Positions 18,333 to 20,530 of a stretch of 64,000 nucleotides of DNA are shown piece by piece. The stretch spans positions 480,001 through 544,000 of the forward strand of contig CAWAGQ010000013.1 in assembly GCA_963781585.1 (NCBI GenBank). Direction: 5' to 3'. The notes under the pieces were generated by a model. It did no database searches, was not told the origin of the DNA, and worked only from the letters and a program-made list of their open reading frames with translations. Every line of letters starts with the position of its first letter. Position 1 is the first letter of the stretch. The translations under genes and the position numbers were made by a program. This DNA is from an uncultured Gemmatimonadaceae bacterium (GTDB lineage Bacteria > Gemmatimonadota > Gemmatimonadetes > Gemmatimonadales > Gemmatimonadaceae).

Positions 18333-18848
18333 TCAGTTACCAGCTGGCTCGAGATTGGAGAAGTGCGAGTGGACGATCTTCCAGCCGCCATCCCGCTTCT
18401 CCAGCACGAGCGTAACTACGGCCGGCGGAGTCGGCTGGAACTGCGCCGCGATGTCCTTGGGAGTGTCGGCGGGAAGGATCGTCGTGGTGTAGCGATAGAA
18501 GCTCGCCACCGCCACCGACCCGTTGCCGTAGAGCTTGATCAGTCGGTCGCGGTCCTCCGTGAAGGTCCGGATTCCGGGAACGAGCTTCTTGAGTTGATCC
18601 ATTCCCGCCTGTTGAATCCGCATGTTCGCCGCCTGGTCGGTGCGACGCCCGGCTCCATTGCCGATCCAGACGCGGTCGGCGGTCATCAGCTGTGCCTGGC
18701 CGCTCATGTCCATCCCATCTTCGAGAGCGCCGTAGTGATCGATCAGCTGATTCACCGCGTCGATGTCCGCCTGACGCTGCGCGTTGGCGAGTGTCGGAGC
18801 ACCGAACCCCAGGACCACGGCCAGGGCACTATGCAGGATCGTTCTCAT
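18333..18848 (-). CDS. Secreted SnoaL/NTF2-like protein
   Basis: Signal peptide MRTILHSALAVVLGFGAPTLANA; TLVLEKRDGGWKIVHSHFS; GGAG RBS. Confidence 0.8.
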   Translation of the reverse strand: MRTILHSALAVVLGFGAPTLANAQRQADIDAVNQLIDHYGALEDGMDMSGQAQLMTADRVWIGNGAGRRTDQAANMRIQQAGMDQLKKLVPGIRTFTEDRDRLIKLYGNGSVAVASFYRYTTTILPADTPKDIAAQFQPTPPAVVTLVLEKRDGGWKIVHSHFSNLEPAGN

Positions 18849-19049
18849 GGACTTCTCCTCCGCCGTTGAGGGTTGGTTGAGTACATCCTGGAATGGGTGC
18901 TGCGGCTGGCCTCTGGCGCGCGCGTACGACGCCCCGGACCCCTGGCCCGCCGGTTTCCGTGTTCGCTGCGCTCTCGAACGTGCGTATCGACGGCGCGAAG
19001 CCAGTGCGCGGGCTAACCGGTTGACGCGCGGCACCGCTCTCGCGGCTAT

Positions 19050-19124
19050 CGGTCGCCCGACCTCGTGCTCGATGCGGTGGCGGTTGGCCAGGACGGCGGC
19101 GAGGCGGGTAGCGATCTCACCCAT
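19050..19124 (-). pseudogene. N-terminal remnant of Ser/Thr kinase
   Basis: MGEIATRLAAVLANRHRIEHEVGR aligns with MADPTDRLSAALADRYRIERELG of the kinase at 13412. Confidence 0.5.
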
Positions 19125-19291
19125 CTTGCCCAACATACGGCGCCTCTCGCGCAATGTCGAACCGAGGGCCTCGCCTTTGTCCGATTGGTGGGTGCTCGGA
19201 TCACCGTTGCCAACGCCGATGAGTCGGCCGCTGCCGGTGACAATCGCGTGATCATCGCGCTCTTCCGGATGTGCGGCGAGGCGCGGCCCAC

Positions 19292-19338
19292 AAAAACGGT
19301 CGAGGTCCAGCGTGCTCCCTTGTGCACGCTGGACCTCG
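19292..19338 (-). terminator. Intrinsic terminator
   Basis: Perfect 15-bp stem 19301-19315/19324-19338, 8-nt loop, TTTTT on minus strand 4 nt after the stem. Confidence 0.8.
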
Positions 19339-19391
19339 CCTTCTAAATGACCGATCGGCGCAGATGCGTCGGTCAGCCGACTAATGAAGCG

Positions 19392-19436
19392 CTAGCGGCT
19401 TCCGGCGATCCACGCCGTAGTAGGGTCACTGGACAC
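19392..19436 (-). CDS. 14-aa micropeptide MSSDPTTAWIAGSR
   Basis: GTG directly after AAGGAGGTGATCCA; TAG stop; flanked by promoter and terminator. Confidence 0.55.
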   Translation of the reverse strand: MSSDPTTAWIAGSR

Positions 19437-19479
19437 TGGATCACCTCCTTGTTGTAGGGTGGAAGCGAAAGGGCGTTTC

Positions 19480-19508
19480 ACGATACAACGGCGACACGCC
19501 GGTCTCAA
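19480..19508 (-). promoter_or_regulatory. Sigma70-type promoter TTGAGA-N17-TATCGT
   Basis: Minus-strand hexamers at 19503-19508 and 19480-19485 with 17-nt spacing. Confidence 0.6.

Positions 19509-19543: not shown

Positions 19544-20530
<987 letters not shown>

Follow-up and report, generated by a model that had tools for sequence, protein, structure and literature searches.

The stretch of DNA analysed here ("the window") comprises 64,000 nucleotides (nt) from an uncultured Gemmatimonadaceae bacterium. Its minus strand carries, between positions 19508 and 19292, a compact unit made up of promoter-like hexamers, an extended Shine-Dalgarno (SD) sequence complementary to the 3' tail of 16S ribosomal RNA, a small open reading frame (sORF) of 14 codons, a hairpin and an intrinsic terminator. 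The unit has the layout of the rre genes, small mRNAs of a kind already published (rreB and rreR; Hahn et al., RNA Biol 2017, PMC5711450), and its presence in Gemmatimonadota lies outside the published range. What is new here is that a single-copy element of this type is widespread in Gemmatimonadota, a phylum unnamed in the main text of the rre paper. We consider it probable that the interval specifies an rre-type small mRNA that works at the level of the RNA and is gated by the ribosome, the Gemmatimonadota counterpart of rreB/rreR and of the CC2171 small RNA (sRNA; Rfam RF01867). A preliminary description of the window had named promoter, SD, sORF, hairpin and terminator, and a reading of the minus strand finds each of them where it had been placed; it had also implied a kind of RNA not known before, which is not so, given that the rre genes were published in 2016/17 and that an Rfam family covers part of the group.

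The complementarity to 16S rRNA is exact for this organism. Both 16S genes of the genome end in ...GCGGCTGGATCACCTCCTTA, with the 3' end taken as the Rfam model delimits 16S, so that the extended SD AAGGAGGUGAUCCAG (DNA AAGGAGGTGATCCAG; 19450-19436) is perfectly complementary to 15 of the final 16 bases. The 15 nt are contiguous, and the final one is the first base (G) of the GTG start codon; the claims of the preliminary description that a 15-nt complement of the 16S 3' end is present, and that it runs into the start codon, are thus borne out by the genome's own two 16S genes. The predicted SD:16S duplex reaches -27.9 kcal/mol, against -7.0 for GGAGG:CCUCC. With at most one mismatch, the 13-mer AAGGAGGTGATCC has one site in the window where 0.02 are expected, and the 5.7-Mb genome holds three exact copies of the 13-mer, two of which are the antisense of the 16S 3' ends. 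The complement is not due to chance. The plus strand of the interval does read CTGGATCACCTCCTT, the 16S end, as a decayed 16S fragment on the opposite strand would; the probability that we have before us such a fragment, or a chance match, is negligible and we regard both as refuted, given the expected count, the restriction of the 16S similarity to the 15-mer, and the recurrence of motif, sORF and terminator across the phylum as set out below. Outside the window, at one further site in this genome (contig C10 of G000, around 66086, minus strand), GGAGGTGATCC precedes ACATG and an open frame that reads MGWTFQNEF..., possibly an ordinary gene with an 11-nt extended SD.

The question of whether the element is peculiar to this genome could be addressed by motif scans. 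The exact 17-nt motif GGAGGTGATCCNNTGTC is found in 124 of 401 Gemmatimonadota genomes (reversed control, 1 of 401), and in all but one of the 124 it is single copy, the extra site being a chance match beside a tRNA. By family, it is present in 19/93 (f1), 76/166 (f2), 2/7 (f4), 9/30 (f6) and 17/70 (f7) genomes; there was none in the 19 genomes of other classes searched. A shorter pattern, GGAGGTGATCCNNTG, occurs in 56 of the 101 genomes of the window's own family and in 0 of 101 with the control. Since diverged copies escape exact-motif scans, the exact-motif counts are lower bounds; the phylum tallies include three genomes flagged as unpublished (G008, G086 and G422), and no claim depends on these alone. 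A BLAST comparison with 40 related genomes recovered the head GGAGGTGATCC(A/T)(G/T)TGTCT, with a short frame behind it, from 10 genomes that belong to the same order. Scanning a named genome collection for GGAGGTGATCCNNTGTC gave at least 119 loci; among the 80 matches listed with names, 59 are alphaproteobacterial, 6 belong to Gemmatimonadota and 15 are other or ambiguous. The search of related genomes that the preliminary description had proposed thus yielded homologues that keep the order SD, sORF, terminator.

Some individual copies are of interest in their own right. One genome of the window's family (G020, contig C168) has two copies that face opposite ways on a single contig, separated by about 4.2 kb (L009 and L237; around 6316 on the minus and around 10491 on the plus strand), both with the 14-codon frame MSTITSKGKGRRSF; the other scanned genomes have one copy each. 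Another genome of the same family carries an alphaproteobacterial-type copy (L225; G438:C160:5499-8513) with a AAAAGGAGG leader and an ATG-started frame of 26 codons, MSSEIQKV.., resembling L144; either the contig is a contaminant of the assembly or the copy has been transferred between phyla. Family-like copies are also present in two metagenome-assembled genomes whose names place them outside both phyla, although a binning error is possible: a Planctomycetaceae genome (L063; 10-codon frame, RF01867 score 38.9 bits) and a Pseudohongiella genome (L052; 25-codon frame, no RF01867 match), the latter with an Aminotran_4 gene downstream, like Erythrobacteraceae. The Sphingomonadales (L035, L040, L043 and others; 20 unique), an order unnamed in the main text of the rre paper, have a uniform 18-codon, ATG-started type, MSHGSA.., in which GCUGACCAUG, at the terminator's foot, is the pairing partner of codons 3-6 (CAUGGUUCAGC).

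The Rfam family provides a second line of evidence for the assignment. RF01867 aligns to the window over its full length (model 1-159 of 159; window 19304-19460) with 29.6 bits and an E-value of 5.5e-4 in the 1.7 kb scanned, and over the whole genome the element is the top of three weak matches (E 4.3e-4); the curated gathering cut-off is 75 bits. An Rfam scan of the interval gave chance-level matches only for other families. Elsewhere the model scores 41 bits in Sphingomonas, 28 in Rhodobacterales and 23.7-36.3 in 14 Gemmatimonadota copies, all of them below the cut-off, which is passed by one Roseiarcus copy (82.9 bits); the model therefore covers only part of a wider group. None of 14 control loci with the 17-nt pattern in a non-family layout matched RF01867 at E <= 1. 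The likeness to the model includes a consensus that begins ..GAAAGGAGGUGAUCCAGUGUCU and a long-range helix from the early sORF to the base of the terminator, which the window RNA shares.

With rreB the correspondence is closer, taking rreB as it is described in print rather than by sequence comparison. rreB is a stand-alone small mRNA of 165 nt with a sigma-70-like promoter and a terminator, and the window element, with its promoter-like and terminator-like sites, is predicted to be one of about 180 nt; both have a GTG-started sORF of 14 codons. In both, the 16S complementarity flanks AGGAGG on either side and finishes on the first GTG base, a conserved hairpin encloses the start codon along with the SD's 3' part while leaving 5' bases free, and the genomic context is unconserved beyond the family. 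They differ in the extent of the complementarity, which is 17 nt in rreB, first GTG base included (PMC5711450), and 15 nt in the window, and in belonging to the Alphaproteobacteria and the Gemmatimonadota, respectively: the 16S tail of the window genome reads ...CCUCCUUA, whereas the alphaproteobacterial leaders fit ...CCUCCUUUC. The second published gene, rreR of the Rhodobacter/Roseobacter clade, shares the docking site and the GTG start but has 18 codons (PMC5711450) rather than 14, an unrelated peptide and another internal fold; rreR-type Rhodobacterales loci have 18-codon sORFs reading MSRxxLERGVG.. and a hairpin over the 3' end of the SD and the start. The range given by Hahn et al. comprises Caulobacterales, Rhizobiales, Rhodobacterales and Rhodospirillales, all Alphaproteobacteria, with sORFs that are usually GTG-started (PMC5711450); the order of the window genome, Gemmatimonadales, lies outside it. 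The terms "Gemmatimonad", "Sphingomonad" and "Rfam" are absent from the main text of that paper, and in the literature searched we found no treatment of the rre genes after 2016/17, no published link between them and CC2171, and no assignment of a function to either.

Much of what the window element may do has to be read from these relatives. As Hahn et al. report, northern blots show a band for rreB in cells that are growing, stationary or from nodules; in full length, the RNA is found in the ribosome pellet and co-sediments with 30S, and without the 5' extension of the SD it shifts to the soluble fraction (PMC5711450). Its translation is weak, restrained by the extended SD as well as by the GTG, and replacing GUG by UAG lengthens its half-life from 10 to 37 min; the RreB and RreR peptides are unstructured in vitro, and the authors term the function elusive (PMC5711450). 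Among the rre genes, 30S binding, weak translation and start-codon-dependent decay have been shown for rreB only. In Caulobacter, CCNA_R0051 (2404309-2404501) is recorded with its own 5'-triphosphate (5'-PPP) site, from tiling arrays (probe CC2171_CC2172) and as "Translated CCNA_03965" (PMC4117421, Dataset S1), much as the window unit has its own predicted start and sORF; CCNA_03965 (2404323-2404409) is listed as "mapped by ribosome profiling" with a CTG start (Schrader et al. 2014, PMC4117421). Its ribosome profiling values are 2049 reads per kilobase per million (RPKM) in M2G and 0 in PYE, with RNA values of 1696 and 1334 RPKM, and a strain carrying CCNA_03965 fused to yellow fluorescent protein (CCNA_03965::YFP) is among four small coding sequences said to be confirmed by western blot (PMC4117421). 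The Caulobacter sORF, compared by description and not by sequence, differs in its annotated CTG start and its 28 codons, and CCNA_R0051 is equated with RF01867 because of the names and because Caulobacter is the sole control genome above the cut-off. R0051 is 4.4-fold up with mitomycin C, an induction that is not treatment-specific (Frohlich et al. 2018, PMC6237742, Table 1), and a northern band for a CC2171-type RNA is reported from Methylorubrum (preprint, bioRxiv 10.1101/2022.01.24.477521).

These observations bear on a reading in which the RNA acts as a sponge for 30S subunits or as a hibernation factor, titrating subunits by blocking their anti-SD tail, as the preliminary description had suggested. 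The predicted 15-bp duplex, the predominant association of rreB with 30S (PMC5711450), the single copy in each genome, its docking site invariant, and the nonspecific mitomycin C induction of R0051 (PMC6237742) would all suit such a factor, and a stop codon might still be needed against stalled ribosomes. Yet a 20-fold overexpression of the ribosome-binding 17c-rreB leaves growth unaffected, ribosomes far outnumber the rreB RNA, and the rre authors judge simple ribosome recruitment to be no major function (PMC5711450); nor would a pure sponge explain the start codon, the serine codon that follows it, or the helices that join the sORF to the 3' region. The sponge fits poorly and we consider it very unlikely.

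The sORF (19436-19392, with TAG at 19394-19392) encodes MSSDPTTAWIAGSR, and its 14-codon type, MS[ST]D..ARIAGSR, is present in relatives. Of 130 elements tabulated, 118 have sORFs of no more than 27 codons (10-27), three of them doubtful (L048, L061, which is cut by a contig end, and L110); the remaining 12 have 30 codons or more, 10 of these without an RF01867 match and two (L089 and L125) with a weak one. Every element with the family layout starts with ATG, GTG or TTG, and the two cases of CTG are in non-family loci. Codon 2 is serine (TCT or TCC) in 25 of 25 family-like elements found without imposing TC. In the window subfamily (n=16) the stop falls at a single alignment column, with TAG in 3, TAA in 9 and TGA in 4 sequences. 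Start, second codon and timely stop are kept and so look selected, which fits real engagement by the ribosome.

Conservation of the frame is one thing and conservation of the peptide another. That the 14-residue peptide is the working product, with the RNA features merely tuning its amount, would account for the retention of start, stop and length, and could draw on the ribosome profiling and reported western blot of CCNA_03965 (PMC4117421). The peptides of the different clades, on the other hand, are without similarity to each other (MSSDP.., MSTESRVACGR, MSSPS..RASDRR.., MSHGSA.., MSRxxLERGVG.., MSHCH..), and in five of six clades variability is not highest at the third codon position. G[AG]T[CT]GC[CT], the one nucleotide motif that nearly all Gemmatimonadota copies have in common, is present in 96 of 184 unique sORFs: 46 read it in frame 0 (as D-R or G-R), 43 in frame 2 (as I-A or V-A) and 7 in frame 1, and one element (L010) tolerates a shift of 1 nt. 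Where the window peptide has Trp, 12 of 14 unique relatives have Arg, which at the level of the RNA is only a change from C-G to U-G. The amino-acid sequence thus does not look to be under selection across clades, as far as the sequence comparisons go. Added to the unstructured peptides, the weak translation and the putative overproduction without growth effect reported for the rre genes (PMC5711450), this makes the peptide as working product unlikely in our judgement; most likely it is largely incidental. The abundant micropeptide envisaged in the preliminary description fits poorly for the same reasons, given weak translation of rreB, dissimilar clade peptides and a conserved motif read in two frames. 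Its pairing of micropeptide and 30S trap did anticipate the two models already debated for the relatives, where rreB is found with 30S and weakly translated and CCNA_03965 is recorded as translated; neither of them fits well.

The predicted transcript (19292-19473) is expected to be strongly structured: the 184-nt RNA folds at -88.1 kcal/mol (z = -6.1), and none of 200 shuffles is equally stable. Two alternative arrangements emerge. In hairpin 1, predicted with RNAalifold from 16 subfamily sequences, the 5' arm GGUGAUCC (19438-19445), which is the 3' half of the extended SD, pairs with GGAUYGCC, and the adjacent UGUC of the start region with GRCG; AAGGAG is left free. The 3' arm in the window, GGAUCGCC (19404-19411), lies inside the sORF and is a near-copy of 16S GGAUCACC. 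All eight pairs are present in 16 of 16 sequences, the hairpin is also predicted in the 11-codon Gemmatimonadota type, the Rhodobacterales and the Sphingomonadales, and the same arrangement is described for rreB (PMC5711450).

The minimum-energy fold of the window RNA shows instead two helices between the sORF and the 3' region. P1 joins codons 3-5 (AGUGACC, 19424-19430) to GGUCAUU immediately 5' of the terminator (19346-19352), and P2 joins codons 8-12 (GGCGUGGAUCGCCGGA, 19401-19416, overlapping the 3' arm of hairpin 1) to the region UCGGC ... GCGCC (19357-19380). In the 16-sequence alignment the P1/P2 structure leaves 73.3% of cells paired, a value attained by 0 of 500 shuffles (66.5%), with a covariation score of 0.278 against 0.158 (0 of 500); slid-partner controls give 35-40%, a comparison that favours the structure because it was derived from one member. 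The core of P1 (helix 3), four pairs, is present in 13-14 of 16, and L070 has CAUGACC:GGUCAUG, changed on both sides. In P2 (helix 4) five pairs each have two sequences changed on both sides (GGCAAGG:CCUUGCC, GGCGAGG:CCUCGCC, GGCACGG:CCGUGCC), and 14 of 16 pairs of the terminator stem (helix 5) show both-side changes among relatives. A further helix (helix 2) of the minimum-energy fold, between the upstream UCGCUUCC (19461-19468) and GGAGGUGA, has 61.7% of cells paired and no covariation in the 16 sequences; this predicted pairing has weak support. Hairpin B, TGACCGA (19375-19369) with TCGGTCA (19354-19348), is an alternative to P1 and P2; the RNAalifold consensus also gives it together with the terminator, and its pair 113/130 occurs as AU, GU and GC, four times each.

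P2 and hairpin 1 use the same strand and the two folds are therefore mutually exclusive. The hairpin-1 state is predicted at -82.9 and the P1/P2 state at -88.1 kcal/mol, a gap of 5.2 kcal/mol; hairpin 1 is the best fold for the first 75-110 nt, P1/P2 dominates from 130 nt, and holding the sORF single-stranded makes hairpin B the predicted fold. The terminated small transcript, the 14-residue leader peptide read by the ribosome and the alternative folds recall rnTrpL/peTrpL of Sinorhizobium (PMC6614838), an analogy of working only. That RNA is the leader of trpE(G) and senses Trp codons (PMC6614838), whereas the window element has no conserved downstream gene, no such codon bias and no antiterminator; a Trp-type attenuator was ruled out for want of tandem regulatory codons and an antiterminator. 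A riboswitch or other aptamer was likewise ruled out, as the apical region, from the stop codon to the P2 3' strand, is variable both in sequence and in length. About 60 nt are inserted in this region in L194 (G324:C46), which belongs to the window subfamily and whose frame and helices are otherwise intact; the region therefore tolerates large changes. The peptides are hydrophilic, which rules out a type I toxin.

From these elements a working model for the rre-type small mRNA can be put together, in which two points are inferred: the order in which the folds change, and that the working product is the RNA and not the peptide. A transcript of about 180 nt would start from a promoter of its own and end at a terminator of its own, as predicted here and shown in relatives. 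Its leader could pair over 15 bp with the free 16S 3' tail, the single-stranded 5' AAGGAG serving as a toehold, while in hairpin 1 the internal near-copy of the 16S tail would sequester the 3' half of the SD and the start region. On docking of 30S, the 16S tail would invade from the toehold and melt hairpin 1, freeing a strand for the covarying P2 and, with P2, for P1, so that the sORF becomes joined to the 3' region. A ribosome reading the 14 codons would then reopen P1 and P2 and allow hairpin B to form. The fold of the RNA, its weak or conditional translation and probably its decay would in this way be governed at the ribosome, and selection would retain the docking site, the start, the serine at codon 2, a stop that comes in time and the helices of the RNA rather than the sequence of the peptide.

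Several observations weigh against this interpretation. The RF01867 score of the window lies well short of the Rfam cut-off, and part of it stems from a common 19-nt motif and a generic terminator. The complementarity of 15 nt is one below the 16-17 nt used by Hahn et al. for analogues, and most TTG-start Gemmatimonadota copies have about 13 nt. Hairpin 1 is unable to covary because the SD is invariant, and the duplex between SD and internal copy is not clearly above shuffles: its mean z is -0.94 in the window subfamily, with 2 of 17 sequences at or below 0.05, and ranges from -0.6 to -2.0 across clades. The argument from the stop codon is partly circular, as the clade groups were defined partly by length. 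L089 and L125, with the alphaproteobacterial leader GAAAGGAGGTGATCC, have ORFs of 48 and 59 codons and RF01867 scores of only 28.9 and 24.5 bits; the frames in these alphaproteobacterial records begin hydrophobic and signal-peptide-like, and the extended SD may here serve a few ordinary small secreted proteins, or the two may be fused derivatives. Three further points speak for the peptide: in the 14-codon subfamily to which the window element belongs, variability peaks at the third codon position (10.6, compared with 7.1 and 6.4), several of the compensated changes in P2 are also synonymous (GCG CGG to GCA AGG), and Hahn et al. describe the peptides as well conserved inside clades (PMC5711450). 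The first two of these mean that some selection on the window-subfamily peptide is possible.

The putative promoter of the unit consists of a -35-like hexamer TTGAGA (19508-19503) and, 17 nt away, a -10-like hexamer TATCGT (19485-19480), together matching the consensus at 9 of 12 positions, with a predicted transcription start about 7 nt downstream, near 19473. A consensus scan of 2.5 kb found two such sites where 0.3 are expected. Among sequencing runs, a search for RNA from this organism yielded none, the matches being three DNA runs of soil metagenomes that contain at most 0.18 of the sequence words. In relatives the position of TTGAGA is held by TTGAGG in L005, of the same genus, and by TTGAAT in L222, and A/T-rich TANNNT-like hexamers stand at distances similar to that of the window's -10. 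This conservation was judged by eye because a strict sigma-70 scan gave sites in only 12 of 194 elements (controls, 1 of 190 and 0 of 194). At the other end, the terminator scan places the intrinsic terminator at 19292-19338, a stem of 15 pairs (19338-19301) followed by the T tract ACCGTTTTTG.

Upstream on the same strand lies an aldo/keto reductase gene (PF00248, E 6e-78) with its stop at 19544, and downstream, about 450 nt from the element, a gene for a SnoaL-like protein that starts near 18845. The stretch in between (18846-19291, minus strand) is without a convincing gene for about 450 nt, and the second promoter-like site, TCGACA-17-TATGTT, lies within it at 19160-19132. Across clades, a Pfam analysis of 150 flanking frames from 75 loci found no neighbour that different clades share, and synteny is local to clades: Aminotran_4 downstream at five loci, Vut_1 upstream in Rhodobacterales. 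In Sulfitobacter (L066) a protein of 156 amino acids with an RF-1 domain, ArfB-like, is encoded directly downstream of an rreR-type copy. The homologues thus have SD, sORF and terminator beside unrelated genes, the upstream gene often being on the opposite strand, from which we conclude that the terminator is not that of the aldo/keto reductase and, there being no neighbour common across clades, that the unit is probably autonomous. The preliminary description of a stand-alone unit missed by gene callers is supported in this respect.

That conclusion meets the proposal of a cis-acting leader or attenuator of a neighbour, or of the 3' untranslated region and terminator of the reductase gene. 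Only 36 nt separate the reductase stop from the -35 hexamer, no terminator lies between them and read-through is possible, and the synteny within clades is what a neighbour-bound element might show. Against this stand the lack of a cross-clade neighbour and the opposite strand of the upstream gene at many loci, a 15-bp terminator with no competing antiterminator in any predicted fold, the distance to the SnoaL-like gene, and the relatives, which are discrete transcripts with start sites of their own (PMC5711450; PMC4117421). We hold a cis-acting role to be highly improbable.

The same single-copy design in a second phylum widens the comparative base for rre-type small mRNAs, and speaks for the docking site rather than the peptide as the part that evolution has kept. 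It also connects three separately named items, the rre genes, the Rfam family CC2171 and CCNA_R0051/CCNA_03965, while the reading of one motif in two frames, taken with the covarying helices from sORF to 3' region, amounts to a concrete structural model that is open to testing. For annotation it matters that the Rfam model misses most orders and that gene callers miss the sORF. A broader idea, which we think unlikely, is that rre-type RNAs form an ancient sensor, common to more than one phylum, for free 30S subunits with an intact mature 16S 3' tail. If so, only an intact tail would invade from the toehold, melt hairpin 1 and flip the balance of hairpin 1 and hairpin B against P1 and P2, committing the RNA to translation-coupled decay or to exposure of its 3' strands; how much RNA there is, or how it is folded, would indicate spare or damaged capacity for translation, and the sORF would merely clear the ribosome. 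Its single copy in Alphaproteobacteria and Gemmatimonadota would then reflect a conserved surveillance of the ribosome and not a role of the peptide.

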